DNA from: a virus
Direction: 5' to 3' (one strand)
IMG/VR virus record: IMGVR_UViG_3300012987_000001
Coordinates: 1-64,000 of that record
DNA: 64,000 nt
The first letter of the stretch is position 1. Each line of letters opens with the position of its first letter. Position numbers and translations under genes: made by a program. The notes beneath the pieces are model-generated. The model did not search any database, was not told the DNA's origin, and was given only the letters and a program-made list of their open reading frames with translations. Of this stretch, positions 4,755 through 35,918 are shown piece by piece.

Positions 4755-5817
4755 ACGCATTGCACAGCTTGCCGATTCTCTGCGCCCTCATCTGAAGGGG
4801 ACGAGTCTGGAAACCAGTGAGGTCGAGTTGCGCCTTTGCTGCGTCATCACCTACCTCGACGAGGCGGAAGAGCGGCGGCATCCGATTGCGAAGGCTCGCC
4901 CGGAGAAAGCACCAGAGACAAAGCTTCTCGTGTCCGATTCGTGGCAGCGAAGCAAAATAGCCAGCGACCCGGAGGTCGACACCGAAGCAGGGCTACCGCT
5001 TCCGCTGAAGTTCGAGCCGACGCCGATGATATCAGAGCCACTCTCACCGGAGAGCTTCGCGGCAGCTGCGGCGTTTCATGCTCACCCAGCGCCACCATCG
5101 TCACCGGGTGAGGACAAGCCGGAGCGCGCGCTGGAAGGCTGCGCGAAGCACGGGCACATCCACTGCACCGAATGCCAACGAGAGCATGCCGTTCGCAGAA
5201 TTCGTGAAGAGCGCGACCACTATCGGGATAAGAAGCAGGAAGGTGACCAGCGAGAAGCGTCGCTGTTGGACGACATCGGTCAGTTTCGCGAGGAGCTAGA
5301 GCGGGTCAGGGCGGAGAAGGCGAGGCTGGAGACGAAGCTGCGCGAGCATGCAGACGCAGATGGTATCCGGGCCGAGCTTGCGAAGCGTGAGGCGGAGCTC
5401 AAAAGCTTGTTCGTGGTGGCTGAGGCCGCGCGAGAGTTGAGCGGCACCTGTCGGAAATTGCAGTCGGTTGTGGAGGCAGCACGCTACATCGTTCGCTTGA
5501 AGCATCACCCCATGGGCGAGCAGCACGACGAGAATGCTATGGCGAGCCTGATGTTGCGATTGGACGAGCTCGACGACGCTGCCCTAGAGCAGCCTCAAGC
5601 TGAGCCGGAGAGGGAGATTGTGGTGGGGTTGACCTGCCAGTGGCACGAGGAGCACGAAGCCGACGACGGCACCATAACAACGGGGCCCGATTGCGGTGAG
5701 CCGGCTACCTACCGTTCCTGCATTCCGTACATGAACACGCCCACCTGCGCGCAGCACAAGTGCCGATGCGCCAAGCCGATCGCCAGCGACCCGCCGGTCA
5801 GCGAGGGGGAGGGGTGA
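4741..5817 (+). CDS. Hypothetical coiled-coil protein with Cys clusters (358 aa)
   Basis: Track ORF. The central region has heptad-like charged repeats (LEELERVRAEKARLETKLRE). CTEC and C..C motifs flank it. Confidence 0.75.
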   Translation: MKPSERIAQLADSLRPHLKGTSLETSEVELRLCCVITYLDEAEERRHPIAKARPEKAPETKLLVSDSWQRSKIASDPEVDTEAGLPLPLKFEPTPMISEPLSPESFAAAAAFHAHPAPPSSPGEDKPERALEGCAKHGHIHCTECQREHAVRRIREERDHYRDKKQEGDQREASLLDDIGQFREELERVRAEKARLETKLREHADADGIRAELAKREAELKSLFVVAEAARELSGTCRKLQSVVEAARYIVRLKHHPMGEQHDENAMASLMLRLDELDDAALEQPQAEPEREIVVGLTCQWHEEHEADDGTITTGPDCGEPATYRSCIPYMNTPTCAQHKCRCAKPIASDPPVSEGEG

Positions 5818-7274: not shown

Positions 7275-7874
7275 CTACTTCGTCCGCTCGTTGAAGCGCT
7301 CGCGGAGTCTGTCCTGCGAATCCTGCAAACGGTCGACCTTGGTCTCTAGCCCGTCTAGCCGGTGGACGCTCGCGGCGTTCTGCGTGGTGAGCTCAGCGCG
7401 GAGAGCGGCCATCTCGTCGCGTACGGCTTTCAGCGCGGGCGTGGGGTCTTCCGCTGCCGGCTTATTGATCCAGGCAGTCACGGCGCCGCCAACGCACGCG
7501 ATCAGCGCGAGAGCGACGGCGCTGGGCATCGACATCGACCACTTGCCCTTGCCGAGCACGACCTGACCAGTGGGCGGTGGCTCTGAGCGCGAGCCAATCA
7601 CCGGCCGCATTGACTCCGGCGGAGGCGGGTTAACGGGCTCTGGCCGGCGTTCTGCGGGCGGGGCGAGGCCGAGTAGGGTCGGCTCGTCCCGATGGCTCTC
7701 CAAGCGCGGCCGTGGCCCCTCGTAGCCCTTGGGCGGGGCCATGCGCATCGGGGCCGGCGGAGGCTCGGTGGGGGCCTCCTGGCTCGGGATGGGGGTGTGC
7801 AGCCCGCGGGCCGCGTTGACCTCGGTGACATCCGGCGGCCAGCCGCGCTTGGGTGGGTCCTTGGGCGGCGGCAT
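7275..7874 (-). CDS. Pro-rich membrane protein with a central TM helix and a C-terminal coiled coil (lysis-associated, spanin-like?)
   Basis: Track ORF. It has a ~110-aa Pro-rich N-terminus, then MPSAVALALIACVGGAVTAWI, then heptad-like AALRAELTTQ...LQDSQDRLRERF. It lies in the lysis cassette. Confidence 0.6.
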   Translation of the reverse strand: MPPPKDPPKRGWPPDVTEVNAARGLHTPIPSQEAPTEPPPAPMRMAPPKGYEGPRPRLESHRDEPTLLGLAPPAERRPEPVNPPPPESMRPVIGSRSEPPPTGQVVLGKGKWSMSMPSAVALALIACVGGAVTAWINKPAAEDPTPALKAVRDEMAALRAELTTQNAASVHRLDGLETKVDRLQDSQDRLRERFNERTK

Positions 7875-7877
7875 GGC

Positions 7878-8405
7878 CTACTTGACCGCGATCGATACGA
7901 CCGACATGGCCAGCGAAATCAGTGAAATCCCAAGCGGGACCCAAATGGCAATGGTCTCGATTTTTGCCATGCGCGCGGCGAGCGCGCGGGTGTCGTCGCG
8001 TAGCTCGCGCACGACCTCGACGGCCATCATTGCCGAGTCTGCCGAGCTGCGGCAGTGGTCCTTGATGGCTCGCACGTCGGAGAAATGCTGCCGCATTTCG
8101 GCCACGTCCAGGCACAGCTGGTCCATTGGAGAGAGGATATGCTTGACCGGGGTCTCCTCGCTCCGTCGGTGATCCTGCTCGTTGGGCGCGATCGGCGGCG
8201 CCCGATCCGTGTCGCCAACGTCAGATGGTACGTGCGGAGCGCGCGGGATTCTCGGGATCGAGGCGAACGGATCCACGGGATCGGTCACCGGTTTCGCGAC
8301 GGCGATCTTGGGGCGCGAGTCCCATGCCTCTGGCGGAGTCACCGCGCGCGGGTAGTCGCTCTCGTGTGGATCGAACCGGCTGGGCTCTTTCGGCTTGTCG
8401 GTCAC
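7878..8405 (-). CDS. Pro-rich tail-anchored membrane protein (C-terminal TM), lysis-associated
   Basis: Track ORF with a GTGA overlap with the endolysin stop. The C-terminus is IAIWVPLGISLISLAMSVVSIAVK. Confidence 0.6.
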   Translation of the reverse strand: MTDKPKEPSRFDPHESDYPRAVTPPEAWDSRPKIAVAKPVTDPVDPFASIPRIPRAPHVPSDVGDTDRAPPIAPNEQDHRRSEETPVKHILSPMDQLCLDVAEMRQHFSDVRAIKDHCRSSADSAMMAVEVVRELRDDTRALAARMAKIETIAIWVPLGISLISLAMSVVSIAVK

Positions 8406-9217
8406 GTGTTGGGCTCCGTGGGTTCGTCGTCGTCTCGGTGGGTGAGGTCGAGGCCGGCGTAGAGATTGGCCGTCAGGTCGTCCCAGCGCGCATCATTCCG
8501 TGCCTGCTCTTCAAGTCGCATCACGACGAGCGCAGGCTGGGTCGCTGGCGCCTCCGGAGCGATCGGCGCAATGGTGTCGGTCGGATTCGTTTTCGCGAGC
8601 GGCAGTGGACCGTCAGCTACGTTCTGATCGAGCAGCATGGGCTTGATGGCGCCGCCGGGGCCGCCCGGGTTGTAGGGGCCAACCGTGCGCTGCCAGATGG
8701 CGTAGGGCTTGTTCCCCGGCGTCGCCGGCTTCTCGGCGTTCACGTAGTGCGCCACCCATAATGGCCTATCCAAGATCCAGGCGGGCTTGCCGAGCCGGCC
8801 GAAATCTCGTTGAGTGATGTAGACCATCGCTTCGCCGAACTCGGTCAACAGGCCATCGACGAAGGCGCTGATGCTCGGCTCCCACGACGGGTCGAGCTTC
8901 GCGGTCAGGTCGTCCTCGACGTCGATCGCGGGCGCGATGTCACCCATCCCGACGCCACATGTGATGGCTTGAGCGCAGAAGGCGTCGAGCTGCTCACCGA
9001 CTGGCTGCGTCGATCTGAAAAAATGATACAGCCCGACCTGGAGGCGAGCGGAGCGCGCGTTTTTGATGTGGGCTGGCGCGCTCGCGTCCTTCGATGTGCC
9101 ATAGGTCGCGCGCACGATCGCGAACTTGCTGGCCTGCGCGATCGTCGCCCACGACACGCCAGCGGGGGCAGTCGTATTCTGGAACTTCGAGACATCGACG
9201 CCGTAGATGCGGGACAT
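8402..9217 (-). CDS. Endolysin, GH25-type muramidase with a C-terminal extension
   Basis: M34 of ORF 8402..9316. The sequence IYGVDVSKFQ...FAIVRATYGT...GLYHFF fits the recalled GH25 signature (DVS...YHF). The start overlaps the upstream stop (TGATG). Confidence 0.85.
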   Translation of the reverse strand: MSRIYGVDVSKFQNTTAPAGVSWATIAQASKFAIVRATYGTSKDASAPAHIKNARSARLQVGLYHFFRSTQPVGEQLDAFCAQAITCGVGMGDIAPAIDVEDDLTAKLDPSWEPSISAFVDGLLTEFGEAMVYITQRDFGRLGKPAWILDRPLWVAHYVNAEKPATPGNKPYAIWQRTVGPYNPGGPGGAIKPMLLDQNVADGPLPLAKTNPTDTIAPIAPEAPATQPALVVMRLEEQARNDARWDDLTANLYAGLDLTHRDDDEPTEPNT

Positions 9218-9408
9218 CAGCGCGCCTTCCCTTTCGGCTTCTCGATCGGCTTCGGCCAAAACGGGTTCTGGTTTCGAGCCGCCCCAACCAGACCAAGCGA
9301 GATCCCTTCGTCGCACATCGAGAACGCGATCAGCTCGGCGTCCGCTCGGAGCTCAGGCGGGAATTTCGCGATCTTGGCGCGCGCTTCGGCGGAGGAGATG
9401 GGTTTCAC
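9217..9408 (-). CDS. Hypothetical small protein (63 aa) upstream of the endolysin
   Basis: The GTG start makes a GTGA overlap with the upstream stop, and the stop overlaps the endolysin ATG. It is the C-terminal part of track ORF 9217..9615. Confidence 0.5.
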   Translation of the reverse strand: MKPISSAEARAKIAKFPPELRADAELIAFSMCDEGISLGLVGAARNQNPFWPKPIEKPKGKAR

Positions 9409-9872
9409 TCGCTGTCGCCCTTCAGCAACGCCTCGAAAGCCTCTCGAGTCAGATGCATATCGCAGAGCCAGAAGCGCTTGAATTGACCCATCTTTGCGAA
9501 CGACGCCGTGAACTCTCCGCAGCCGGTGGCCGCGCAACGGTGCAGCGTCGGCGCTGAGTCCTTCGATCGCGCCTCGAGCTCGAGTTCGTTGTCGAGTTGG
9601 TATCGACAATGACACTCGTGGGCTTCGGCGGCCGTAGCGTGACCATCCGTGTGGTACTTCGCCTGGTGAGCGCGCAGCGCTTCGGTGTCGGCGTCCATCT
9701 GTTTGACGAAGCCCTCTCCGAATTGGCGCACGAGGCGCTCTCTGGCTTCACCGCTGGCCGGCCCCCTCCAGCCGGCGCAGTAGCCGATCGGGTATGGGCT
9801 CGAGCTTCCGGTGCCCGACGTGTAGTCCCATCGGCCATCGGTTCGCTGTAGTGGTCGCAAATAGGTGGTCAT
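9405..9872 (-). CDS. Conserved-looking phage hypothetical protein (155 aa; MTTYLRP..., YHTDGH, Cys/His-rich)
   Basis: Track ORF 9405..9890, with ATG at 9872 preferred (alternative TTG at 9890). Confidence 0.65.
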   Translation of the reverse strand: MTTYLRPLQRTDGRWDYTSGTGSSSPYPIGYCAGWRGPASGEARERLVRQFGEGFVKQMDADTEALRAHQAKYHTDGHATAAEAHECHCRYQLDNELELEARSKDSAPTLHRCAATGCGEFTASFAKMGQFKRFWLCDMHLTREAFEALLKGDSE

Positions 9873-9891
9873 GATCTTTTTTCTCGGCAAC

Positions 9892-10092
9892 TCAGCCCGA
9901 TACGGGCCGACAATACTCAGCCGCGGCCGCTACCCGCTCAGCTCGGTGACGACCCGACCGCCGACCGGAGAGATGGGTCCGCCGCAGGCCTTTTTTCAGC
10001 TTTTTCCACGCCCCCTGCATAGCCATGATCCGAATCGCCACGCCGATACCGACGGCGATCGCCAGCTCGATGGCTTGCTCGGCGCGGCTCAC
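9892..10092 (-). CDS. Holin candidate (66 aa, one TM helix, strongly basic C-terminus)
   Basis: Track ORF with a GTGA overlap upstream. The helix AIELAIAVGIGVAIRIMAM is followed by KKLKKGLRR... Confidence 0.45.
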   Translation of the reverse strand: MSRAEQAIELAIAVGIGVAIRIMAMQGAWKKLKKGLRRTHLSGRRSGRHRAERVAAAAEYCRPVSG

Positions 10093-10268
10093 TTCTGCTC
10101 CTTGAATGGCACACGGATCGCCTCTTTCGCGGCGATGATCGCGGCTTGGCGCTCGGCCTCAGCGACTGGATCGTCGTGCCGCAAGAGCGCCGTTACGATC
10201 TTGGTGATGGCAGGCACGATCTCGGGGAACTGACCCAGCAGCGCAATGAGCTCTTTCACTGGCCACAT
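10089..10268 (-). CDS. Hypothetical small protein (59 aa)
   Basis: M15 of ORF 10089..10310 (MWPVKELIALLG...). Confidence 0.5.
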   Translation of the reverse strand: MWPVKELIALLGQFPEIVPAITKIVTALLRHDDPVAEAERQAAIIAAKEAIRVPFKEQK

Positions 10269-10681
10269 GCCTTCTCGATCGCGGTATCGCAATCGGCGAG
10301 CGTTTCGCACTCAGCCTCGGACTTGCCAGCGTTGGCGCATTGCTGAGACTTGACGACGCAGGAAGCGACAACACCAGCGAGCCGGGCCTCGTCACACGGC
10401 GGCTTCGGGTTCGAGCAAGCTGAGGCATGGAGAGATGCGGCCAACAGAAGCACAGCCGCACCCGCCCCCGGGAACATCGGCGGCAGCTTCGGTTCGTCGC
10501 CCTTGGGCTTCGGTGTCTCGCGCACATTCACCGAGAATTTCGCGTTTGCCGCATAGCTGGCCAACCGGGCGAAAAACTGCGCATATTTCGCAGGCAGCGG
10601 AAGGTGCGCGAGTACCGCGCTGATCACGCCAATGGCGCCGAGCGCGGAGGTGACGTCGGTGAGGATTTGTTCGATGGGCAT
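10256..10681 (-). CDS. Membrane protein with an N-terminal TM helix and an internal lipoprotein-like signal followed by a Cys-rich tail (spanin-like?)
   Basis: M77 of ORF 10256..10909 (MPIEQIL...). The helix is ALGAIGVISAVLAHL. The in-frame internal segment is MFPGAGAAVLLLAASLHASAC followed by SNPKPPC... Confidence 0.55.
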   Translation of the reverse strand: MPIEQILTDVTSALGAIGVISAVLAHLPLPAKYAQFFARLASYAANAKFSVNVRETPKPKGDEPKLPPMFPGAGAAVLLLAASLHASACSNPKPPCDEARLAGVVASCVVKSQQCANAGKSEAECETLADCDTAIEKACGQ

Positions 10682-10776
10682 GGTTTTTGGTTGGGTGAGA
10701 CTCGAGACGCAGCAGGGCAGCGTCCACCCGCCGGGAGGGGGACCACCAAGTGAACGCCGCTCTGCTACGTCTTGGG

Positions 10777-11115
10777 TTAGGTATTGTCGCAGTGCAGCCG
10801 AACCGTCTTGTCGCTGCCGAGTTCCGGAGAGCCGGATAGCGTGTACCGACAGCGAAGCCGGTAGGTGGTGCCCGGCGTTCCGCCAGTCGCGAGGAACGAC
10901 ACGCCCCAAAGCGTGTCGCTGATCTGACCGGGAATCACCGAACTGATAACGAGCGAATCGCCGACCAACGCAGTGTCGTTGTCGTCAACAGCGGTCACGG
11001 TTGCTAGGGCCAGCGAGTCGCCGCTGTCTACGGGGATCTCGATCGTGTAATCCATCGATTGCCCAGATGGGTCGTGGACCCAAGGGCACAACGGGAAGAG
11101 CACTCTTACGCTCAC
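10777..11115 (-). CDS. Small beta-rich virion protein, fibre-tail adaptor-like
   Basis: Track ORF. The GTG at 11115 follows GGAAGG (alternative ATG at 11055). The pattern DYTIEIP..GDSL....V......L.......I....V.F...GG.PG..Y.L.C resembles the recalled fibre-adaptor family. Confidence 0.55.
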   Translation of the reverse strand: MSVRVLFPLCPWVHDPSGQSMDYTIEIPVDSGDSLALATVTAVDDNDTALVGDSLVISSVIPGQISDTLWGVSFLATGGTPGTTYRLRCRYTLSGSPELGSDKTVRLHCDNT

Positions 11116-11118
11116 AGC

Positions 11119-13305
11119 TCAGGCCTTCCAGCGCCGAGCGGCGCGCGTTGCAGATGTGGTGCGGATGCGCCGCTCGAATGGCGATCGGACGAAGCCACTC
11201 GTGCAGATTCCGCTCAACGAGCCGACTCCACCGATCAAGCAGGCGATCGATGCCAGCGCGGATCCGGTTCCGGTGATGGTCCCGACGCCGACGCAGGTGG
11301 CTATCAATGCGCCAGCGGGCGCAGTTGTGCCGGACAGTGTTCCGACGCCCGACATCGAGCAGGCTGCCGAAAGAACCCGCGCTCCGGTTCCCGTCAGGGC
11401 TCCCGCGCCGGCACTAGTTACGTTCAGTGCGCCGGGGGCGGTCAGTGTCGCGTTGACGCCACCAATGCCGGCAGCCGATGCGCTAACTGATGCGAGAGCG
11501 CTCCACGTCCCGGAAATCCCGCCAACACCCGCACAGGTACCGGTCGCGCTCCCCTGGACCATCGATCCGGACAGGGCGCCGACACCGGCCGCGATACCCG
11601 CGAGAGCGCCGAGCGCAGAGCTTGTGACCGACAGCGCGCCGGCTCCCGGGATCGTCGACGCAAGAGCGCCGCCCGCCGAAACGGTTGCCGCAGTTCCTCC
11701 GGCGCCAGCTGCGGTTCCCGCGAGTGTCCCGCGAGCGCTCGCGGTGCAGCTGAGCGCACCAATGCCGGCGCACGAGGCCGAAGCCGCACCAGGCGCCGTG
11801 AGCGTTCCGGAAAGGCCGCCAGCGCCCGCACAGGTTGCGTTGTTGCCTGGCTGAAGAACGGTCCCGGACAGGGCGCCAGCGCCCGCACACGAACACGCCA
11901 GCGCGCCTGGGGCCGTTGCTGCGCCAGAGAATGCACCAACGCCGGCTATCGTCGCAGCGGCCGCGCCTTGGGCCTGCGCAGTGCCCGCTAGGGCGCCCGT
12001 CCCTGCCGTCGTGCACGCTAGCGTGCCGGGTGCCGAAATGATGCCTGTCTGAGCACCGACGCCAGCGCACGCAGAGGCGAGCGCGCCAGGAGCGCTCGCC
12101 GTGCCCGCCAGCGCCCCGACTCCGGCGCAAGATGCCGCCAACGCCCCGGGCGCCGTAGCAGTCCCAGAAAGCGCCCCCGCGCCGGCAGCTGTGCCACCGA
12201 GGGCACCGAGCCCGCTCGGCGTTCCTGTCTCTGCCCCAGCGCCCGCCAATGTGCCGGCAAGCGCGCCGCCGGCTGAGGGTATCGCGGAGACGCTGCCCAT
12301 GCCCGCGCAAGTAGAGGAAATCGGTCCCGCCGAGACCGGTGAGGTAATCAGCAGGCCGGAGCCGAGCGTGGGGCGGGGTGGGCCCGGGAAATGTGTGCCG
12401 AGCGCCGCGGCATAAGCCATCGGCTGCGGTTGCGGCATGGGGGCCGCGATCGCTATGGAGATCGATCCAGAAAGCGCCCCGATGCTTGCGAGCGTTGCGG
12501 ATATCGGTGCTGCTGAGATGGTAGCAGCGAGCAGTCCGACACCGAGACGCGCTATTCCAGGCAACGGAGCGCGCGGCGGAAAGCCCTTGGCGCGTTGCTG
12601 TACAGAGCCAAGCATTCCCGGATCGGGAATGCTCGCCCCGGCACTGGCTCCTAGCTCATCAAATACCGCAAACGCGACCAAGTGCTCGACGTTGGCGCTT
12701 GCGGTGAACGTCGCCGCTTGCGAACCGATCGCGCTGATCGCCTTCCACTCAGCGCGACCACCGATCCCGATCCCGAACGTGCCGCCGGTAGCAAGCGAAG
12801 TGAACCCAGTTCCCGCTGCGGGCGCGCCGGTGAACGTCGAGAACGCGAAGCCAAAAACACCAGCGGGCTGCTTGGTATTGCTCGCCGCAGTCGCGACAAC
12901 GCCATCCGCGCCGGTGCCCGGAGTCGCACGAGAAACTGGGCCAGTGCCCGCATCAAACGATGCGACCGCGGCGCCCGATATTTTGATGTACGCGATGCAC
13001 TTGTACACAGTCGACGCGCTGAACGTCGCCGTGATCGTTGTGCTGCCAGAGGCACAATTCTGCTTGTAGAAAGTGGTGAGGTCTTGGCCGTTGGCATCGG
13101 AGACCTTCGTGCCGAGCGCGGTGTAGTTGCCCGCGTTTACGTTGTCCGCGACCGTGATCGTTGGCGCGTTGGAGTTGTCGCTCCAGACGCCCACGTAGAG
13201 CGTGTCGCCGGCCGCAACCGTGACCGTGATCGCTTGCGTCGTGCCGGCTGTACCTGGGCCGGTCGAGCCGTCGTCCGCAAATGCGGCTGTTGCGGAGAGG
13301 GCCAT
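11119..13305 (-). CDS. Tail fibre / receptor-binding protein: lectin-like N-terminal domain, then ~18.5 x 20-aa Gly/Ala/Cys repeats, then a basic C-terminal tail
   Basis: Track ORF (728 aa) placed in the fibre cluster. The repeat consensus is AG(A/V)GALSGTxxAPGALAxxC. Confidence 0.75.
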   Translation of the reverse strand: MALSATAAFADDGSTGPGTAGTTQAITVTVAAGDTLYVGVWSDNSNAPTITVADNVNAGNYTALGTKVSDANGQDLTTFYKQNCASGSTTITATFSASTVYKCIAYIKISGAAVASFDAGTGPVSRATPGTGADGVVATAASNTKQPAGVFGFAFSTFTGAPAAGTGFTSLATGGTFGIGIGGRAEWKAISAIGSQAATFTASANVEHLVAFAVFDELGASAGASIPDPGMLGSVQQRAKGFPPRAPLPGIARLGVGLLAATISAAPISATLASIGALSGSISIAIAAPMPQPQPMAYAAALGTHFPGPPRPTLGSGLLITSPVSAGPISSTCAGMGSVSAIPSAGGALAGTLAGAGAETGTPSGLGALGGTAAGAGALSGTATAPGALAASCAGVGALAGTASAPGALASACAGVGAQTGIISAPGTLACTTAGTGALAGTAQAQGAAAATIAGVGAFSGAATAPGALACSCAGAGALSGTVLQPGNNATCAGAGGLSGTLTAPGAASASCAGIGALSCTASARGTLAGTAAGAGGTAATVSAGGALASTIPGAGALSVTSSALGALAGIAAGVGALSGSMVQGSATGTCAGVGGISGTWSALASVSASAAGIGGVNATLTAPGALNVTSAGAGALTGTGARVLSAACSMSGVGTLSGTTAPAGALIATCVGVGTITGTGSALASIACLIGGVGSLSGICTSGFVRSPFERRIRTTSATRAARRWKA
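11194..12306 (-). repeat. Intragenic tandem repeat, ~60-nt (20-aa) unit, 18 full copies plus 1 partial
   Basis: Counted by hand over aa 334-704: 16 units of 20 aa, two of 19 aa and one of 13 aa. Cys recurs at or near the last position of many units. Confidence 0.85.
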
Positions 13306-14697
13306 TTAGTCAAGCACCAAAACGACGTCGCTCGTGCCATCCACGCGCGCGGACGGCTGGGTGAAATTCTGCGTTCCCGTGTTCGTGAGCGAGGCGGAAA
13401 TCAGGGTAAAGGTGCCCGCGGTCGGATCGAACCAGCGTGCGCGTTTGGCGCTTGAAAACTGCGACATCGCTACCGTGATCGTTGCGGCGGCCCCGCTTGG
13501 AAAATAGGCCGCCAGGCACGCCGCTGACGCGCGCGCGCTCACGTAACTCGAAGACGTGTACGTGCCGCGCCCCGCGGTGACGAAGGTGTTGCTCGAGTCC
13601 GGCGCCATCGTGGCCCACGGCAGCGCGGACCATAGTGCCCAGGTGTACCCGTGCTCGGTCGTGCCGGTAGTGCCCGTGACGTTGGCCGCGTAAACCCATC
13701 CCGTCGGACTCGTTCCGCCCCGTGCGTAGCACAGAGAGGCGCTCCCCTCGCACATGCCCGAGTGCTGTTTGGCGCGCAGCTCGAGCGTGGTGCTTTGCGC
13801 TGGGTCTCCCTCGTAGGACTCGTCAAGGAGCAGCGTCGGACGAGTCGGCGAGTGGCCGTATCCCGTGCGGATCCGGGTGTAGACGAGCGCGCCGGGGTTG
13901 TAGCCGTAGTGCGACCAGAGAAGCTGCGAGTAGCCTGCGAACGTGGCCTGATCGAACGCCAGATCACCGCCGTTGCCGCTGCCCGTGTCGCCGTCCCAGT
14001 GGGCTACCCAGAGCTTGTTCGGATCGACCGAGATCACGCCGTCGACCACGTGCTGAAGTCGACTCTCGAGCGTCGAAGCAACGGTGGGCCGCGCGTCTCC
14101 ACCCATGCCGTAGATCACGTTCGTGCAGCCGAGTAGGAGATTCCCGACGTACTGCCCGTACGTCGTCATGTGGGCGTCGGTGTCCGCCTGCATGACATCG
14201 CCCCAGCCTTCGCTGGTACCGCCCGCCACTGCGTTGTATCCGAGGTACGCGACCTGGACGATCGCCAGCATCCCGATCGATTGCAGGTACTGGACGCACG
14301 CCAGCGCGTGAGCGAAGTAGGTCGCGTTTGGCGTCGAGAAGTTGCCCGCGCTCGTGAACGGCGCGACCGTGCTGCCGTTGTTCCAGTTGGGGGCGGCGAA
14401 GTGGTTCCCGCTCGTGCTCGGGAATCTCAGCTGATCGTTGCTGATCAGGGAGACATGCAGGGCGTTGAACCCGCGCGCCTTCTGCGCGTCAGCAAACGAA
14501 ACGAAGTCCGCGTAGCTGATCGCTTGGATGTAGTCCCATGCGGCGGCCGCTACGTTCAGCAGCAGCGGCGCCCCGCCGGCCGTGGTCAGGGCTCGCGAAT
14601 CCACGGACATGGCGATCGGGAATGGCGACGCGGGCGGAGTGGTAGAGAGCGTGCCCGCGCCCAGTCTCGGCGGAACCAACGCTGAGCGCGGCGGCAT
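13306..14697 (-). CDS. Glycoside-hydrolase-like tail protein (DUF4038/GH140-like catalytic region plus a C-terminal collagen-binding-like beta domain)
   Basis: Track ORF (463 aa). It has a TIM-barrel-like pattern and the C-terminal motif RWFDPTAGTF, recalled from the PF12904-type domain. The stop abuts the next start (TAAATG). Confidence 0.55.
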   Translation of the reverse strand: MPPRSALVPPRLGAGTLSTTPPASPFPIAMSVDSRALTTAGGAPLLLNVAAAAWDYIQAISYADFVSFADAQKARGFNALHVSLISNDQLRFPSTSGNHFAAPNWNNGSTVAPFTSAGNFSTPNATYFAHALACVQYLQSIGMLAIVQVAYLGYNAVAGGTSEGWGDVMQADTDAHMTTYGQYVGNLLLGCTNVIYGMGGDARPTVASTLESRLQHVVDGVISVDPNKLWVAHWDGDTGSGNGGDLAFDQATFAGYSQLLWSHYGYNPGALVYTRIRTGYGHSPTRPTLLLDESYEGDPAQSTTLELRAKQHSGMCEGSASLCYARGGTSPTGWVYAANVTGTTGTTEHGYTWALWSALPWATMAPDSSNTFVTAGRGTYTSSSYVSARASAACLAAYFPSGAAATITVAMSQFSSAKRARWFDPTAGTFTLISASLTNTGTQNFTQPSARVDGTSDVVLVLD

Positions 14698-14703
14698 GCG
14701 CTC

Positions 14704-15276
14704 TCAGAACATCTTCTGTTCGTGATCGATGTCGTAGATCTGGACACCGTTGCCGGCATTCGAGATCGAGAAACCGACCCAGAAATCCAGGATATTCGCG
14801 ATTGTCGAATCGAAGCCAGTGCCGACTGCCGGAGCGGTAGCGGGAACCGGGAACGAGCCGACGACAGTGGTCGAGTCCGCGCCAGCGCCGACCGTGAACA
14901 TGATGCCGTTCAGCGTGCCGCCACCGATCAGTTTCGCCGCGGTCCCAGCTCCGATGGAATCGACGCGATTGGTGATATCCAGCGTGAACGGGATCAGTGT
15001 GTGCGCAGTCGTTGACATCTGGATTGCGCCAGATGTCCAAGCGACGATCGAGCCCATCATGAGCTGAAACGTCACCGTGCCAGGAGTGGTCACGATGTTT
15101 GAAAGTCCACCCCAAACCCGAGTTCGGATTTTGCTACCGACGGTCAGATAGTTCGCTGGCAACGTCTGAAGTTCGGTCGCGTTGATGACGCTCTTCGCGG
15201 TCGTGTAGGTGTTGAATAGGGTGCCGGCCGCGCGTTGCGACTGGAGAACCTGAGGGAAAACAGGTACGCCGGACAT
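14704..15276 (-). CDS. Hypothetical virion/fibre-associated beta-rich protein (190 aa)
   Basis: Track ORF in the fibre cluster. No motif was recognised. Confidence 0.65.
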   Translation of the reverse strand: MSGVPVFPQVLQSQRAAGTLFNTYTTAKSVINATELQTLPANYLTVGSKIRTRVWGGLSNIVTTPGTVTFQLMMGSIVAWTSGAIQMSTTAHTLIPFTLDITNRVDSIGAGTAAKLIGGGTLNGIMFTVGAGADSTTVVGSFPVPATAPAVGTGFDSTIANILDFWVGFSISNAGNGVQIYDIDHEQKMF

Positions 15277-15279
15277 GGA

Positions 15280-15720
15280 TCAGTCCTCCGTCGCGACGAG
15301 CGCGCCGATTGCGAATTGCGGGGTGATGCCAGTCGAGACCAACAGCGAGGCACTGAGTGCGCCCGAGTAGAGGATCGCGGTTGCGCCGGAGGTTGCGACG
15401 CCGAGGGATACGTGGGTGATCGTGTTCGTGCCGCCCGTACACGCGGGGAATGCGATCAGTGCCGCGTTGACCGCCTGCGCCGGGCTCGTGCCGGAACACG
15501 TCCAGCCGCCGGTCGTGCGCGCAACCGACACGCGCGCGTAGCTCGTGTACGTGGCTTCGCTCGTGGCCTGCGTCCCGGAGTCACCAGGATCCGCGGTGTG
15601 GAGCGCCACGAAAAGGTTCGTGAGCGGGCTCGATGCTGCGTTGTCGGCGATGTTCGCCCACGCCGTCGCGTTGAACAGCAGCTTGAGCATGTTCAGCTCT
15701 GCCGTATCTGATTTAGACAT
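15280..15720 (-). CDS. Tail-fibre-associated protein (conserved LHTADPGD family)
   Basis: M16 of ORF 15280..15765. The sequence AELNMLKLLF...VALHTADPGDSG...YARV resembles a recalled phage fibre-protein family. Confidence 0.6.
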   Translation of the reverse strand: MSKSDTAELNMLKLLFNATAWANIADNAASSPLTNLFVALHTADPGDSGTQATSEATYTSYARVSVARTTGGWTCSGTSPAQAVNAALIAFPACTGGTNTITHVSLGVATSGATAILYSGALSASLLVSTGITPQFAIGALVATED

Positions 15721-15936
15721 ACGTGTCCCTTTGCAGCGCGTGGGCTGCGGTTGTCTGTCGTGCACCGAGCAGAGCTCGGCCCTTGCGGAGCGGGGTCCGC
15801 GGGTGGTCTTGATGGGCGCGTCAGGATCGCTAGCTACGCGACAGCGGGAAACCCCCGCATCGTAGCTACGCTGGACAGCGCTTTAGTTGTGACAGCTAAG
15901 GGCGTGTTTTAGTGGGCGCCCCGGGTCTTCAGCGCA

Positions 15937-16164
15937 CTAGCGGGCCAGCGATATGACGTATTGGCGCCGATGGCGAAGGGACAAGCTCTCGGCGAGTTCG
16001 CGCGCCTCTGCAATCGGCAGCGGCTCAGCATTCTCTCGCGCGCCGGTCGGAGCTGTAACGTTGAAGCGGTCGCTTGGGCCCGCGACGCCGGAGGCAGCGA
16101 ACGCAAGGGTGCGCTCCTGGAACAGCTGGTCTTGCTCGTGCTCTGTCAGGTGCGCCGTCGCCAT
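15937..16164 (-). CDS. Hypothetical small protein (75 aa)
   Basis: Track ORF filling the gap after the large upstream gene. Third codon positions are G/C-rich and the RBS is weak. Confidence 0.45.
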   Translation of the reverse strand: MATAHLTEHEQDQLFQERTLAFAASGVAGPSDRFNVTAPTGARENAEPLPIAEARELAESLSLRHRRQYVISLAR

Positions 16165-16180
16165 CCGGCAACCCTAGCCG

Positions 16181-19100
16181 CTAGTGCCCGTCGAGGCCAG
16201 ATGGCACCATCATTTGCGCAGGATCGTAGGCAAAAACGTTCGGGCAATTCTCGAGATAGGGCATCAGCGTCAGAAGTGTCGTCTGGATCCCAGTGAATGA
16301 CCACACGGCGCCATCGCGACCAGGGGCTACGGTTGCCTCCCATTGCTGGTAACCAACGGTCGTCGCAACAGTGGCTCCGGTGTCGTCGTAGAACTGAATG
16401 CCTGGGCCGGAATCAAAACTGAGCAGCACCTTCGTTGTGCCAAGCGGTACGTAGAAATAGATCCGGACCGCGCTGCCGTCGTAGTTCACGAAGGGCGCGT
16501 TGCCGTTGATCTGAACGAACGGGTTACGCTGCTGGAACAGCACCGACAGGCCTTCACCGGCCGACGGAATCAGGTCGAGTAGGTAGTTGCCCGCTGCCGC
16601 CGTAACAGTGCACGTCGTGTCCGTGTTGGAGAACTGAGCGCCAGCAGCGCTCACGGCAAAGTCGTTGACGATCACACCAGTCGTCGCGTTTCGAACGACG
16701 CACCGACTCGGCACACCGCTAGGCGATGCCGAGAATTGGAACGCCCGAAACGTGAAGGTCAGATCGGCAGCACCCTTGCGGAACACGTAGCTTTGCGGCT
16801 GCTGTGAGTTGGCGCACGACTGGACGAGCGTTGTTGATGCACTCGTCGTGAGCGGGACGAGTGTTTCGCTGAATTGGCGCCGCGCTTTGGCAGCGTCGAA
16901 CGGGTAGGCGGCGGCTCCGCTGGCGAGCACAGCCGCGATCGCCGCGGACGAAGGCTCGGCAACGCTGGCGAATCCGGAGCCCGGAGTCGAGCTGTTCCAT
17001 TTGTTGATCAGGAGCCAGTTGATCGCGAAAACGTAGGTCGTCGCGAAATTCACGAGCCCCGGGAACGTGACCGTGACGCCAGTGCCAGCGAGCGCGTTGC
17101 CAGCTGGGTTGGTGAGCACGCCGCTGGTCCAACTACCCCCCCCATCAGTGGACCAACGAAACTGCGCCGTACCAACGAGCCCGGCGGTAGTGACTTCGAT
17201 CCTGAGCTTGTCGACGACGGGCGTGCCCGCGATCGCTAGTAGCGTAGCGCCGGACGTGAAGTTCGTGATCCCGCCGCCGGCTACGCCGTTGACGAGTTCA
17301 TTGAACCACACGGAAAACGCTACGTGATTGCTGTGAATCGCGTTCGTCGTGGCGATGTTCCACGCCCACGACTGGCATGCATCGGCGGCAGTCCAAAAAG
17401 CTGCTTCGTTTGCCGTCGTGGGGCTGCGCTGAAATGCCCTGCGCGCCGAGCGGTGCTCGTACAGCACGCGAAACCACTGAAGATCGGCGATCACCTGATC
17501 GAAGCGGGACTGTGCGGCAGCATCGGGTGCCGCATTTAGCGCCGTCTGTGCGTCGGTGAGGTTTTTGAAACTCTGCGCGAGTTCGTTTGCGTTCAGCGTG
17601 AATTGGTCGAATTGCGCACGCGGTGGCGTGTACCACCAGCGTTCGAACATCGCCCGCGCGTTCGTGGCGGCGGCCCCGAGCTTCGAAAAAAGTTCGTCAA
17701 GATATCCGTCGATCGTTGTAGTCGAGTCCCAGACCAAGCGCGCGATCGCGGCAAACCCGATCCCAACAGAGAAGCTCGAGCACGACGTTTGCGCGATCAT
17801 CGAGGTCACGCCGGCAGCGATGTACGCCTTGGCTTCCGCGAACATCGTCCGCGGTGACATGCGGGGCAGGTCCAAGTTTGTTCCGCCCAGCAACCACGAC
17901 GGCTGCATGCCGAGCTCGAACGCGCCGAGTGGGTTCGTTGCGAGTTTGGCGGCCCAGTCCGCAAGGAACTCCTCGCGCAACCGCAGGTAAAATACCTGGT
18001 ACGTGTCGGGCAGCGCCATCACGAGCGCGTTGCTGTCGATCGGAATATTCGGCGGTGCCGCGTGCTCGCCGTACGCGAGCCAGCACGCTTTTGCGGTCGT
18101 GGTTCCGTGGAACCAGTATGCGAGATAGCTCGCCTGGAAGTTCGCCAGGTGCGTGACGCGATCGGAGATCGTCGAGTCCTGCGTTTGCTGCGCGGGGCTT
18201 AGGTAGGCGCTCCACGGTCCATTGCGCAGCAGATTGACGCACGACGTGCACGCGCAGTGCGAAGTCCCGTCGTTCGGCTCGGCTGAGACGTATTTGGCGA
18301 TCGGATGGTTCGGGCGATTCGTGTTGATCCTGACGCACAACACGTCACGCTTGAGCCGCGCTTCGTCGCGGGCGACACCAGAGAACGACACGTAGTCGGT
18401 TTGCACCAGATCGGCAGCGCTATCCGTGTTGGGGTCCGGGTCGAGCGCGCCGGCAGACAGACCCGAGATCGCCTCTTGATTTGCCTGCGTTGTCCCGGGG
18501 GCGGCAACCGTCACACCGACCCAAGGCGTTGAGCCAACACCAGCCGCGTCGCGCGCAACGCCCGGCGTACCGTGGTGGGTGTAGTTGACTTTGCAGAGCT
18601 GCTCGGCGGTGAAATATGCCGCGGGGTAATTGCCGCTCGTCGCGTTCCAGCCCCGTGGGTGACCAGCATTCCACGCAAGGCGCGTGTGGTCGTGACGGTC
18701 GAACCACTGCGAGTGGATGGTGAAGTTCTCGTCGCCGTCAAAGCCGGCTTGCCAGCTCGCAGGCCAGCGATTGCGCGCGTAGTAGTCGAACCAAAACGTC
18801 TGGCTCTGGGCCTGGTTCGGGATGTTCGGGGCGCCGGTTTTTGGCAGATAGTTGCCGTTGCCAGCGGCCGCGAACGTGCGGAACGCCGGCGCAACCACGC
18901 CCGAGTGCTGGAGCGCATTCACGTTCGTGCCCGAGGGTTGCACGATCCACGCGCTGTGGGGCAGGTACTGGCGATATCCGAGCGCGAAGAGCCAGTGATA
19001 CAGCCCAGAGCGCAGAGCCTCAGGCTCGGGCGCGACGATCCAAACATCGCCGCCGAGCACGGCGTCGAAAACGAAGCGATCGCCGTAAAACGGATCGATG

Positions 19101-19384
19101 GTTGCCGCATCCGTCACCACGCGGCTGGGCGCGCTGGACATGAGCGAGCTCGTGCTCAGGCAGACGTGCACCGTGCGCACGCCAAGCCGCGCCTGTCGCC
19201 GCACGACCGCGGAAGCGCGCGACACCATGCCGTTGATGGTCGGCAGGATGTAGGCGTCGACGAACGAGCTCAGCACCTGGCCGTCCGTGTAGAGAACCTG
19301 GCCCGCCGTGTCCGTCGGCAGCACCAGCTCATCGAACCGCGTAATCAGCCGGCTTGCGTCGCGGACTGGCACAATTGACGTCAC
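16181..19384 (-). CDS. Large tail-associated protein with a glycosidase-like region (DUF4838-like motif SAEPNDGTSHCACTSC)
   Basis: Track ORF 16181..19498. The GTG at 19384 forms a GTGA overlap with the upstream stop and gives 1067 aa. The function call rests on one recalled motif. Confidence 0.6.
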   Translation of the reverse strand: MTSIVPVRDASRLITRFDELVLPTDTAGQVLYTDGQVLSSFVDAYILPTINGMVSRASAVVRRQARLGVRTVHVCLSTSSLMSSAPSRVVTDAATIDPFYGDRFVFDAVLGGDVWIVAPEPEALRSGLYHWLFALGYRQYLPHSAWIVQPSGTNVNALQHSGVVAPAFRTFAAAGNGNYLPKTGAPNIPNQAQSQTFWFDYYARNRWPASWQAGFDGDENFTIHSQWFDRHDHTRLAWNAGHPRGWNATSGNYPAAYFTAEQLCKVNYTHHGTPGVARDAAGVGSTPWVGVTVAAPGTTQANQEAISGLSAGALDPDPNTDSAADLVQTDYVSFSGVARDEARLKRDVLCVRINTNRPNHPIAKYVSAEPNDGTSHCACTSCVNLLRNGPWSAYLSPAQQTQDSTISDRVTHLANFQASYLAYWFHGTTTAKACWLAYGEHAAPPNIPIDSNALVMALPDTYQVFYLRLREEFLADWAAKLATNPLGAFELGMQPSWLLGGTNLDLPRMSPRTMFAEAKAYIAAGVTSMIAQTSCSSFSVGIGFAAIARLVWDSTTTIDGYLDELFSKLGAAATNARAMFERWWYTPPRAQFDQFTLNANELAQSFKNLTDAQTALNAAPDAAAQSRFDQVIADLQWFRVLYEHRSARRAFQRSPTTANEAAFWTAADACQSWAWNIATTNAIHSNHVAFSVWFNELVNGVAGGGITNFTSGATLLAIAGTPVVDKLRIEVTTAGLVGTAQFRWSTDGGGSWTSGVLTNPAGNALAGTGVTVTFPGLVNFATTYVFAINWLLINKWNSSTPGSGFASVAEPSSAAIAAVLASGAAAYPFDAAKARRQFSETLVPLTTSASTTLVQSCANSQQPQSYVFRKGAADLTFTFRAFQFSASPSGVPSRCVVRNATTGVIVNDFAVSAAGAQFSNTDTTCTVTAAAGNYLLDLIPSAGEGLSVLFQQRNPFVQINGNAPFVNYDGSAVRIYFYVPLGTTKVLLSFDSGPGIQFYDDTGATVATTVGYQQWEATVAPGRDGAVWSFTGIQTTLLTLMPYLENCPNVFAYDPAQMMVPSGLDGH

Positions 19385-20130
19385 GACACGAACCCCGCCC
19401 AGCCGGTGAAAAGAGTCGAGCAGTAGGCGTCCAATTTGGCGATCAATTGATCGGCTGCAGTGGCGCTCGGAGCGGTGAATACCCCGCCGCACGACCACGC
19501 CGCGTTCGCAAACGTGCTTGCCGCTGCGTTACGGGAGAGAATCGAGAAGCCGCTTTGCGCCGCCGATGCCCCGCTCGCGCCCGTGGTGGTAGCCGCGCCC
19601 CATTGCATGCGGTCCGTCGATTGATTGCTGAACAGCGATACCGCGCGCTTGGGTGTGCCTTGCGTGTAGCCCGTCGTAACGGTCAGGGCGACACCGTTCG
19701 TGCACGTGATGCCAGCGCCGCTAAACCCAAGTAGACAACGCGGCGTGGTTCCGGAGCCAGCTGACCAAATCGTGTTGAATCCGGTTGCAGACGCGATGCC
19801 CTTGCCCACCCAGTAAACGAACACGACAGACAGCGGGGAATTGCTGATCGCAGGGAATGCGAACGATGTCTGAATCAAAGTCTTCGCGGTGCCATCGCCG
19901 ACCCATGCCGCGCGCCCGCCGACGGACGCAGCAGTGAGCGCCGGCCCGGTCGTGTTCCGGGCGAGGACGTCAGCCGGATTGCGCAGTGACGCGGCGGTGA
20001 GTACCTCACTACCGCTCAGCGTTTGCGCGCTCAGCACCGCGTCCCACCAGCCGAGGCAATTTGGGCTCGTCCAGGGCTTGAACGAGGGTGGCTTAGTGCC
20101 AATCGCGAGAGTGTTCAGCCCGAGGATCAT
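19381..20130 (-). CDS. Hypothetical fibre-cluster protein (249 aa, jelly-roll/LamG-like impression)
   Basis: M81 of ORF 19381..20370, with an ATGA overlap with the upstream stop. Confidence 0.6.
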   Translation of the reverse strand: MILGLNTLAIGTKPPSFKPWTSPNCLGWWDAVLSAQTLSGSEVLTAASLRNPADVLARNTTGPALTAASVGGRAAWVGDGTAKTLIQTSFAFPAISNSPLSVVFVYWVGKGIASATGFNTIWSAGSGTTPRCLLGFSGAGITCTNGVALTVTTGYTQGTPKRAVSLFSNQSTDRMQWGAATTTGASGASAAQSGFSILSRNAAASTFANAAWSCGGVFTAPSATAADQLIAKLDAYCSTLFTGWAGFVS

Positions 20131-21014
20131 CGGCCCACAGCAGCTCCGACGATGCCTACGCAGTTGGTCGTCCCTGCTTGCAGCATTTTGATCTGAAGAC
20201 ACAGTGCGGTACCGACGACGAACCACCGAGCGTCGAAATACGGACCGGAGCCATCGTCGATAATATCGACTGGGCTCGATGCTGCGGGAGCGCCCGCAGT
20301 CGGTGTCGCGCTGCACGTCATCACAACGCGCATGCGCGCTTCTGATTCTTTCGACCCATCGACGAGCCAAATCAGGGCATTGACCACGAGGCGCCCGGAG
20401 GTGTATCCGCGAGCGGGGAAGTCAAATGACCAAATCGTGTGGTAGCTGCCGTCATTCGTGAACGCTTGCTTCGGGATCCCCGGATTCGTGATCAATGGGA
20501 TACCGAGCGCATCGGGCGCGAAGTCGGTGAGCGTGTAGACGCCTTGGATCAGTCCCGAGCTGCCGCCTTGGGCGATCGAGATCGCTCCCGTGGTGTATTT
20601 CCACGTGGAGTTGAGGAGGTTGATCCCCTCGGTGACCGTGATGAGACCGTTCTCTGGGGGCTGAGTCGCCACTTCAGTGTAGACTGTGCCCGTGACGAGG
20701 TAGAGCTTGTTGTGCGCAGTATTCGACTGATTGGCGAGGGCGACGATCTTACCATTCAGCGACACGCCATCATTTGATGTGGGTCCCGATGCCAAGCTCG
20801 CCACTTCCGCGACGATGACTGTCGCGACGGGGGTCATTTGGAGCGGATCACCGCCGCTTCCGCCGCCGGAGCCAGATGGCTTCGATGTCACCACGACATC
20901 CAGCGGAGATCCTGGACCTGGGAATAGAGCGCCGACCCGATCAGGCTCTCCCGACAACCACACATAGAGCTGCCCATCGCTGGATGAGCGCGCCTGCATC
21001 TTATACTGCGCCAT
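20127..21014 (-). CDS. Hypothetical tail/fibre protein (295 aa)
   Basis: Track ORF, coupled to both neighbours. Confidence 0.65.
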   Translation of the reverse strand: MAQYKMQARSSSDGQLYVWLSGEPDRVGALFPGPGSPLDVVVTSKPSGSGGGSGGDPLQMTPVATVIVAEVASLASGPTSNDGVSLNGKIVALANQSNTAHNKLYLVTGTVYTEVATQPPENGLITVTEGINLLNSTWKYTTGAISIAQGGSSGLIQGVYTLTDFAPDALGIPLITNPGIPKQAFTNDGSYHTIWSFDFPARGYTSGRLVVNALIWLVDGSKESEARMRVVMTCSATPTAGAPAASSPVDIIDDGSGPYFDARWFVVGTALCLQIKMLQAGTTNCVGIVGAAVGR

Positions 21015-35818: not shown

Positions 35819-35918
35819 TTGGTGCTTTCTCCGAACTTCGGGCACACGCCCGCGTGAGCGCGCGCAGCGAGGCGCGAACCCGAAGGAGCCCTGATGGGCT
35901 CAGTCAGCTATTGGGCGA

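Follow-up and report, generated by a model that had tools for sequence, protein, structure and literature searches.

A glycine-rich 20-residue repeat protein of a myovirus-like prophage as a candidate rope of a bead-chain fibre

A 20-residue repeat array in a prophage protein

The subject of this analysis is an open reading frame (ORF) for a repetitive protein of 728 amino acids (aa), located at 11119..13305 on the minus strand of a 64,000-nucleotide stretch of viral DNA (positions 1 to 64,000 of IMG/VR record IMGVR_UViG_3300012987_000001; this whole stretch is termed ‘the window’ below). From its N-terminus onwards, the protein consists of a beta-sandwich domain, a linker, the 19 units of the repeat and a basic tail. 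Its gene lies in a compact cassette of a prophage, beside genes for a homologue of one protein and a putative homologue of another from the fibre apparatus of Ralstonia podophage GP4, and a possible role as the ‘rope’ of a bead-chain fibre is developed from these surroundings.

The repeat array, which is rich in glycine and alanine, occupies aa 334-704 (11194..12306, minus strand), as delimited by autocorrelation and by the parsing of individual units. Its self-identity peaks at lag 20 (0.40) and lag 40 (0.39), with further peaks at lags 60 and 80; secondary peaks at lags 10, 30 and 50 (0.27 at lag 10 and approximately 0.26 at the other two) stand out from the values of 0.07-0.14 at neighbouring odd lags. 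The lag-20 periodicity score of the repeat ORF is 0.44, whereas no unrelated ORF of the window with 150 aa or more scores above 0.118. Anchoring on G-x-G places the unit starts at aa 335, 355, 375, 395, 415, 435, 455, 475, 494, 514, 534, 554, 574, 593, 613, 633, 653, 673 and 693, which gives 16 units with the full 20 aa, a further two with 19 aa and, last of all, a partial unit; the parse given in the original prediction, a note made on this DNA before the present work, is thereby reproduced exactly. At the protein level the repeat is real, and far beyond chance.

The column consensus of the unit, G-(V/A)-G-A-L-S-G-T-x-S-A-P-G-A-L-A-x-T-C-A, consists of two unlike, related halves of 10 aa each (G-x-G-A-L-S-G-T-x-x and A-P-G-A-L-A-x-x-C-A). 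Positions 1 and 3 are glycine in 17/17 full-length units, and position 8 is T or I in 16/17. There are 13 cysteines in the array, and a cysteine is found at unit position 17 or 19 in 10 of the 19 units, in agreement with the earlier remark that this residue recurs near the unit end in about half of them. The composition is heavily skewed (A 27%, G 23%, T 11%, S 11% and L 9%; Gly, Ala, Ser and Thr together account for 72%), with no aspartate at all and a single glutamate. The basic C-terminal tail that had been described, FVRSPFERRIRTTSATRAARRWKA (11122..11193, minus strand), is present in the translation of the ORF.

Searches with the repeat protein and with its halves against Pfam, PHROGs and the PDB sequences gave no matches, and neither tblastn of the protein nor megablast of the surrounding 16 kb found a match among 50,697 phage records (INPHARED). 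The claim that the unit corresponds to no standard fibre-shaft repeat holds in all three of the former collections (Pfam, PHROGs and PDB), none of which returned a shaft match. With collagen, T4 gp5, gp12 and gp37, the adenovirus shaft and the RTX beta-roll, the array shares the general character of Gly-rich, beta-forming short tandem repeats in a host-recognition organelle. Unlike the G-X-Y repeat of collagen, however, it has a lag-3 identity (0.10) that is no higher than background, and unlike the RTX beta-roll it has neither aspartate nor calcium-binding positions and follows a period of 10/20 rather than 9/18.

The DNA that encodes the array tells a different story from the one first proposed, namely that its units of about 60 nucleotides (nt) form a ready substrate for changes in copy number. 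Tandem Repeats Finder reported no DNA tandem repeat at the array; the 60-nt units share a mean identity of 49.5% (maximum 70%), and exact direct repeats reach 16 nt at most. These values match those obtained by resampling synonymous codons of the array (identity 0.495 +/- 0.006; longest repeat 14 nt on average and 21 nt at most). The near-identical DNA units that define a hypervariable tandem-repeat locus of the slippage or contingency type are not found here, and the array is a poor substrate for slippage or homologous recombination. Its DNA units are as diverged as synonymous randomisation allows; the array is evolutionarily old, conserved only at the protein level, and not a slippage hot spot.

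The related expectation that repeat number varies among relatives was borne out, and in one related group the variation proceeds by exact 20-aa units. When the rope-like protein of locus L038 is compared with its relatives in L044, L048 and L089, two separate indels are seen, each of exactly 20 aa, and for this reason the 20-aa unit is regarded as the evolutionary module. The proteins of this group (4468-5379 in L038) are approximately 340 aa long, are built of the unit VGSAAGTSTAxAVGxxIxxx, and have at their end a module rich in Trp that repeats every 10 aa (…W..I.PP….W…). Cysteines are frequent only in the repeat protein of the window and in the homologues P0001, P0003 and P0006, and are nearly absent from the other homologous arrays.

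The surrounding cassette and its linkage to Gp80-family genes

The repeat gene belongs to a row of five genes on the minus strand (15720-10777), in the order Gp80-like protein, p190, apiosidase-like hydrolase, repeat protein and Gp77-like protein. It is separated from the hydrolase gene by 0 nt and from the Gp77-like gene by 3 nt, all on the same strand. The same order is found in loci L001, L003 and L009, whose repeat-protein homologues (P0001, P0003 and P0004, respectively) share the architecture of the window protein, and in the context of P0010.

The Gp80-like protein (15280..15720, within a frame that is open to 15765; minus strand) comprises 146 aa from MSKSD and matches Pfam family PF23140, ‘Podophage GP4 fiber I protein gp80’, with E = 3.6e-18. 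Its sequence matches chain 8jou_a of the PDB by phmmer (E = 1.8e-5), and its AlphaFold2 (AF2) model, which has a predicted local distance difference test score (pLDDT) of 92.5, returns GP4 fibre I (8jou_a) as the top Foldseek match (E = 6.9e-6; TM 0.61/0.65), with the Bas63 whisker (9mt4_K, E = 8.2e-4) and the Sf14 neck (9c39_K, E = 4.5e-3) among further matches. The identity of this protein as a fibre ‘bead’ is solid. The structure of GP4 fibre I in PDB entry 8jou is reportedly the work of Zheng et al. (J Mol Biol 2023). At least 7,889 members of the Gp80 family are present in metagenomes, and the protein of the window is 100% identical to an NCBI protein from a metagenome-assembled genome (MAG) labelled ‘Polyangiaceae bacterium’. 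Upstream of the likely start MSKSD, a gap of about 460 nt (15721-16180) separates the bead gene from a gene for a protein of 1105 aa; this is unusually long for a tightly packed operon, the open frame extends only 15 codons upstream of MSKSD, and scans for promoters, terminators and Rfam families around the cassette, including this gap, gave nothing above expectation.

At the other end of the cassette, the small Gp77-like protein (10777..11115, minus strand) is a putative immunoglobulin (Ig)-like fibre-tail adaptor or collar protein, for which the match to PF23148 (‘GP4 fiber-tail adaptor protein gp77’) has an E-value of 8.2e-6. The proteins encoded at this place in L001, L002 and L011 are clear matches to that family (E = 5.7e-14 in L001 and 2.2e-13 in L002), and the similarity of the window protein to its syntenic counterpart in L002 is weak by BLASTP (E = 0.006); a search of PDB sequences with it gave no match. 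Its translation probably starts at the ATG at aa 21, in which case the protein would have 92 aa. The repeat gene and the Gp77-like ORF lie in the same frame in the window, with a TGA and one codon between them (11113-11124; …AAG GCC TGA GCT GTG…), and a fusion of the two would look like the collar protein of Bas63, in which rope and Ig are joined. Most relatives have overlapping, out-of-frame junctions at this point; the arrangement, which is not conserved in relatives, is probably a coincidence, and read-through from one gene into the other was rejected.

The gene directly before the repeat gene encodes an apiosidase-like glycoside hydrolase (13306..14697, minus strand; PF13204, E = 1e-20) with a C-terminal ‘collagen-binding-like’ domain (PF12904, E = 2e-10). 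In L001, L002, L003, L009 and L011, too, the gene before the repeat gene is for a glycoside hydrolase, and the enzyme is a probable component of the same fibre. P0010 (gene 8001-10730, which comes after a Gp80 gene and a 163-aa gene) is a single protein of 909 aa, in which Gly-rich 20-aa repeats are followed by an apiosidase and then by more repeats. As a ‘Rosetta-stone’ fusion, it suggests that in the window, too, hydrolase and repeat protein are parts of a single assembly.

The remaining member of the cassette, p190 (14704..15276, minus strand), is a conserved protein of 190 aa that has no match in Pfam, PHROGs or the PDB. Homologues with 59-69% identity were found only in L001, L003, L009 and L011, and are missing from L002 and L010. 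The distribution of p190 is mirrored in the linker of the repeat protein (aa 233-333; 12307..12609, minus strand), a region modelled with low confidence that holds two copies of a conserved motif: VQQRAKGFPPRAPLPGIARLGVGLL at aa 235-259 (12529-12603, minus strand) and PQPQPMAYAAALGTHFPGPPRPTLGSGLLI at aa 291-320 (12346-12435, minus strand). Conserved copies of it are present in P0001, P0003, P0004 (three) and P0011 (two), and in its general form, QQRAKGFPPRAPLPG(I/V)ARLG, the motif occurs only in loci that also encode p190 (the window, L001, L003, L009 and L011). Because p190 and the motif co-occur in this manner, a specific interaction between the two is suggested, which would make the linker a second, independent docking module on the chain.

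The designation of the repeat gene as a tail-fibre gene in the original prediction is partly supported. The gene does lie in the fibre region, between the baseplate and lysis genes, but the idea of a tail fibre in the classical sense is weakened by its Gp80-like and Gp77-like flanks. These flanks point, at the level of gene content, to a bead-on-rope fibre that would be anchored to an Ig-like collar. That the protein might instead be no virion component at all, and rather a secreted or cell-surface ‘moron’ product of the prophage, seems very improbable: the host-like label of the MAG mentioned above would fit such an origin, but the gene sits inside a structural operon, on the same strand and with the minimal gaps (0 and 3 nt) already noted, it is flanked by homologues of proteins that have been solved in virions, and the fold of its N-terminal domain matches phage minor tail proteins.

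The association of such repeats with Gp80 extends well beyond this cassette. A Gp80 profile recovered at least 570 IMG/VR loci, of which 80 were kept and 78 were used for counting linkage, with a periodic region defined by a lag-20 periodicity score of at least 0.15. A periodic region was found within 6 kb of the Gp80 gene, on either side, in 42/78 loci, and within 3 kb in 35/78. Where at least 3 kb of downstream sequence was available (50 loci), 30 have a periodic ORF on the same strand within 6 kb, and another five have one just upstream. The control DNA, 208.7 kb in total, has just two regions that reach the threshold: the focal gene itself and an unrelated DNA tandem repeat of 30 nt. Gp80 genes are thus linked genome-wide to genes with a 20-aa periodicity. 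The two genes occur together in the window, L001, L003, L009, L010 and the context of P0010, and a 20-aa periodic signature beside Gp80 appears not to have been described before in the Open Access literature that was searched.

The periodic neighbours are diverse in sequence, with units such as GTGALAGTIAGVGAQTGALR, VGSAAGTSTAxAVGxxIxxx, GAGALTGVGRSTFSAVLASS and LNGTGSLxxDIxGxL. All of them share the 20-aa period and a richness in G, A, S and T, and the number of their units ranges from 9 to above 45. Among them are bare proteins of approximately 300 aa, like gp79 of phage GP4, as well as proteins with N-terminal domains, like that of the window. The homologue P0006, which has only the repeats in common with the window protein, is encoded directly after a Gp80 gene. 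The idea that its C-terminal domain is a fused Gp77-like Ig domain, as in Bas63, was unsupported by Pfam.

A natural negative control for this linkage is provided by locus L002, where the array and Gp80 are missing together. The protein encoded there (P0002, L002 10001-11875) shares the N-terminal domain (72-79% identity), the neighbouring hydrolase is 78% identical, and a Gp77-family gene occupies the same position; P0002 has no Gly/Ala array, and the 22-kb locus has neither Gp80 nor p190. In place of the latter two, L002 has unrelated genes of 203 and 163 aa. The C-terminal half of P0002 is composed of Pro/Arg-rich repeats (RRPRAPLP-like) with a period of about 33-35 aa, which resemble degenerate copies of the linker motif.

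Locus L011 presents another combination: p190, apiosidase, Gp77 and, at 7430-10546, a protein of 1038 aa built on another 20-aa repeat, ‘GSGTSAxSPFAxxGxxxExF’. It has no match to the Gp80 hidden Markov model (HMM), and the N-terminus of a 135-aa ORF (4843-5250) follows a pattern (…RVYDSTQPTDADT…) like that of the whiskers. To judge from this one locus, the type of bead and the type of repeat may co-vary. A disulfide between rope cysteines and Cys94 of the bead was also considered and set aside, as the nearly invariant bead cysteine is conserved whether or not the rope has any.

These observations bear on another view of the array, as a flexible, largely unstructured or silk-like spacer of low complexity that does no more than hold the N-terminal binding domain away from the virion, with the Gp80 linkage reflecting shared membership of a cassette and no one-to-one docking. 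Such a spacer would be in keeping with a composition dominated by four small residues, with the lack of family or PDB matches and with a copy number that varies among relatives. It sits badly with the strict register of the glycines at unit positions 1 and 3 and of T/I at position 8, with indels of exact 20-aa units, and with an exact period that is conserved across families whose unit sequences are unrelated; nor does AF2 call the array disordered. Because the register is strict, the indels are exact and the period is kept across families, each unit seems to be under structural constraint, and the spacer explanation is considered doubtful.

A candidate rope for a bead-chain fibre

An AF2 monomer model of the repeat protein was built from an alignment of 77 sequences; a model of this kind does not distinguish between a trimeric shaft and a chain that folds only on a partner. 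The N-terminal domain (aa 1-232; 12610..13305, minus strand) is predicted as a beta-sandwich with a pLDDT of about 95 over aa 1-222, while the linker (aa 225-325) and aa 701-717 fall below 50, and a short helix is modelled at aa 719-727, within the basic tail. The predicted template modelling score (pTM) of the whole model is 0.47. Within the array the pLDDT is 63-79. Its first half is modelled with two strands to the unit, and the strands that follow are irregular; strand lengths range from 5 to 28 residues, in spite of the regularity of the sequence. Foldseek comparison of the model with the PDB gave nothing at E <= 1e-3, and no beta-helix or solenoid is found among the 50 matches listed; the best are weak, jelly-roll or like carbohydrate-binding modules (CBM-like), with E >= 0.03.

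For the N-terminal domain, which had been described as lectin-like and approximately 230 aa long, a confident beta-sandwich of some 222 aa is supported, and the likeness to lectins is only generic (best PDB match E >= 0.03). A search of representatives with this domain gave 656 matches, many of those listed being standalone proteins of 230-245 aa, and comparison with BFVD returned many uncharacterised phage proteins of 200-250 aa, together with ‘minor tail proteins’ of mycobacteriophages.

The register of the repeats had initially suggested a beta-solenoid, possibly with a ladder of cysteines. In its present form this explanation holds that the array, monomeric or trimeric, needs no partner to fold into a beta-solenoid or into a shaft similar to a beta-roll, in which each 20 aa would make one coil of two strands, and that the protein forms an independent fibre, comparable to gp78 (fibre II) of GP4, which shares the Gp77-like adaptor with a separate Gp80 fibre. 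Several features are compatible with it: AF2 places two strands in each unit and does not treat the array (pLDDT 63-79) as disordered; the two 10-aa halves resemble the turn of beta-rolls, which is formed by two nonapeptides; a core could be made up of the Leu residues at unit positions 5 and 15 together with the Cys, Ile or Ala at position 19; and the gene is in the position of GP4 gp78, directly before the adaptor gene. The predicted structure, however, is not the regular, confident solenoid that this idea would lead one to expect, given its moderate confidence, its strands of irregular length, its pTM and the lack of a solved beta-helix among the matches listed, and the cysteines of the proposed ladder are not conserved across homologous arrays. 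A self-folding shaft would also leave unexplained why periodic genes cluster beside Gp80 in 42/78 loci, often as proteins of approximately 300 aa with no other domain, and why Gp80 and the array are lost jointly in L002, and it would leave the Gp80-like beads of this prophage without a rope. The original suggestion is weakened accordingly, and a shaft of this type is regarded as unlikely, though less so than a disordered spacer.

An alternative framework is supplied by fibres in which beads are assembled on an extended chain. In the myophage Bas63, whisker dimers sit end to end, ‘like beads on a string’, along a rope by which their incomplete sandwiches are completed (PMC12609058); the rope runs through a groove of each monomer and supplies its missing strand (PMC12609058). 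It is fused to the Ig collar in Bas63 and is a separate protein in GP4 (PMC12609058), where fibre I is described as five gp80 dimers on a separate, elongated ‘rope’ protein (PMC12609058), and where 15 copies of a 93-aa Ig-like adaptor ring the head-to-tail adaptor and anchor the fibres (PMC11445570). Within the Open Access literature that was searched, the term ‘rope protein’ is found only in the Bas63 paper. The Bas63 collar protein was identified here as gp4 of MZ501086, whose Cys52, Cys69 and Cys90 match that account (PMC12609058); the rope is its N-terminal stretch of less than about 50 aa, which serves four monomers (two dimers) and so provides approximately 11-12 aa per monomer.

Candidates for similar ropes can be found in GP4 and in Bcep22, where gp79 (GP4, 325 aa) and gp61 (Bcep22) adjoin the bead gene and are labelled as virion proteins in their records. 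Each can be divided into some ten Gly-rich units of about 20 aa, with lag-20/lag-10 self-identities of 0.21/0.17 for gp79 and 0.18/0.12 for gp61 against a background of about 0.08. The order bead, gp61/gp79, large fibre protein and adaptor runs in parallel through Bcep22 gp60-gp63 and GP4 gp80-gp77. Searches of PDB sequences with Bcep22 gp61 and gp62 gave no matches, and Pfam contains no family for gp78. No cross-matches between the repeat protein of the window and gp79 or gp61 were found by tblastn; what connects the protein with the GP4 rope is thus its period, its composition and the place of its gene, and not homology.

Taken as a whole, these comparisons lead to the proposal that the 728-aa protein is the rope, or scaffold, of a multi-protein bead-chain fibre, as a long, multi-module variant of the type found in GP4, Bas63 and Sf14; a probability of roughly 55% is assigned to this reading. 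Under the rope proposal, the 19 units would be docking sites for Gp80-like beads, held by strand donation. If one 20-aa unit holds one dimer, with one half-unit per monomer as in Bas63, the chain would carry approximately 38 beads; if instead 20 aa are taken up by each monomer, the figure that follows from ten gp80 chains on gp79, it would carry approximately 19. The unlikeness of the two half-units might reflect the symmetry of the bead, since a rope with a direction would encounter the two monomers of a two-fold dimer in opposite orientations. At full extension the array would measure roughly 125 nm (about 370 aa at 3.4 Å each), and the number of units would set the length of the fibre.

The basic C-terminal tail would be the virion-proximal end, anchoring the rope to a ring of the Gp77-like Ig adaptor, and the N-terminal beta-sandwich would form the distal tip. 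A ‘PF’ strand after the repeats is also seen, with weak similarity, in GP4 gp79, Bcep22 gp61 and P0004. Between tip and array, the linker motifs could dock p190, and the apiosidase-like hydrolase could ride on the same fibre. We infer the physical threading of the beads, their stoichiometry, the polarity of the chain, the partner of the linker motif and the role of gp79 as the rope of GP4.

Comparison with the fibre I apparatus of GP4 illustrates how far such a variant would depart from its model. The two systems have in common a Gp80-family bead gene and the same 20/10 period, which is that of gp79, and a putative Gp77-like gene is placed directly after the repeat gene in the window. The candidate rope of the window, in contrast, is 728 aa long with 19 far more regular units, and is fused to a 230-aa N-terminal beta-sandwich and a motif-bearing linker; p190 and a glycoside hydrolase are inserted into its cassette, and it belongs to a myovirus-like prophage, whereas GP4 is a podovirus. 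With the collar-whiskers of Bas63 (PDB 9mt4) and Sf14 (PDB 9c39) the system shares the fold of the whisker, which is that of the Gp80-like protein, and with Bas63 the order of rope and then Ig domain, which corresponds in the window to the order of the repeat gene and the Gp77-like gene. It differs in that the rope of the window would be a separate protein with approximately 370 aa of repeats, and in that the Bas63 rope has no obvious Gly/Ala repeat.

Long fibres of beads have also been described for the Anabaena myophage A-1(L), which carries flexible, multi-copy bead-chain neck fibres of about 100 nm that are anchored to a 15-fold collar and bear a distal carbohydrate-binding module (PMC10966104). 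The likeness would lie in a long bead-chain fibre on a myophage; the differences are that other proteins are involved (trimers of gp80, gp81 and gp82) and that the beads are described as trimers stacked head to tail, with no rope (PMC10966104). The shared numbering of A-1(L) ‘gp80’ and GP4 gp80 is a coincidence.

A number of results weigh against the rope proposal. AF2 predicts beta structure, with moderate confidence, for the array alone. An HMM of the repeat unit gives no signal above shuffles in either of the presumed counterparts, scoring -3.2 bits on gp79 (shuffles -7.3 +/- 7.8, z = 0.5) and -16.7 bits on gp61 (z = -1.2), and gp79, which is absent from PDB sequences and Pfam, is not confirmed as the rope of GP4. 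In gene order, the 728-aa gene holds the position of GP4 gp78 (the other fibre), and the position of gp79 is taken by p190. The stoichiometries of the two model systems disagree, with approximately 11-12 aa per monomer in Bas63 and approximately 22 aa in GP4 if ten gp80 chains are bound to gp79. No periodic neighbour was found in 36/78 Gp80 loci, many of which are truncated, and the Gp77-like protein of the window scores 26.7 bits with PF23148, just under the cut-off of 27.

A broader and more tentative form of the proposal, to which we give somewhat less than even odds, is that Gly-rich 20-aa repeats constitute a general ‘rope code’ of tailed phages, in which each unit would bind one Gp80-family dimer by donor-strand complementation and the number of units would set the length. 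A single polypeptide could then combine Gp80-binding units, a QQRAKGFPPRAPLPG motif for p190, a tail for the Gp77 collar and either a tip domain or a hydrolase. If this is true, such a polypeptide would amount to a programmable scaffold, and a whole class of fibre could be read from sequence alone. If the rope reading itself is right, a puzzling low-complexity protein would become interpretable, with fibre length and bead count predictable from unit number, and the cassette could be annotated in thousands of uncultured phages in which its components are now listed as ‘hypothetical protein’. The design itself, with one extended chain that organises beads, p190, hydrolase and collar, would be an unusual one, and would be of interest both for the engineering of phage host range and for the construction of protein fibres of defined length. 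The rope reading would also correct a tempting mis-annotation of such proteins as trimeric beta-helical tail fibres.

Further features of the window

The prophage that contains the cassette is myovirus-like, measures approximately 46 kb (8402-54795) and makes up most of the window. It runs from an integrase gene (53506-54795) through genes for a DnaB-like helicase, terminase, portal, protease and the major head protein (34829-35845), to the sheath (31263-32588) and the tape measure (28299-30065). Beyond the tape measure are found a Dit-like protein, a baseplate hub, baseplate J and several large proteins without a family, followed by the cassette; a GH25 endolysin (8402-9316) and small membrane proteins lie at the end of the prophage. 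The tail-region proteins without a family match include those of 1105 aa (16181-19498), 425 aa (21426-22703) and 329 aa (19381-20370). Outside the prophage, at positions 1-116, the window begins with a near-perfect 30-nt DNA tandem repeat (unit CAGCACGCTCAACGCCGAGTCGCGGGAGAC, 3.9 copies, 97% matches), which in one frame reads as four copies of STLNAESRET.

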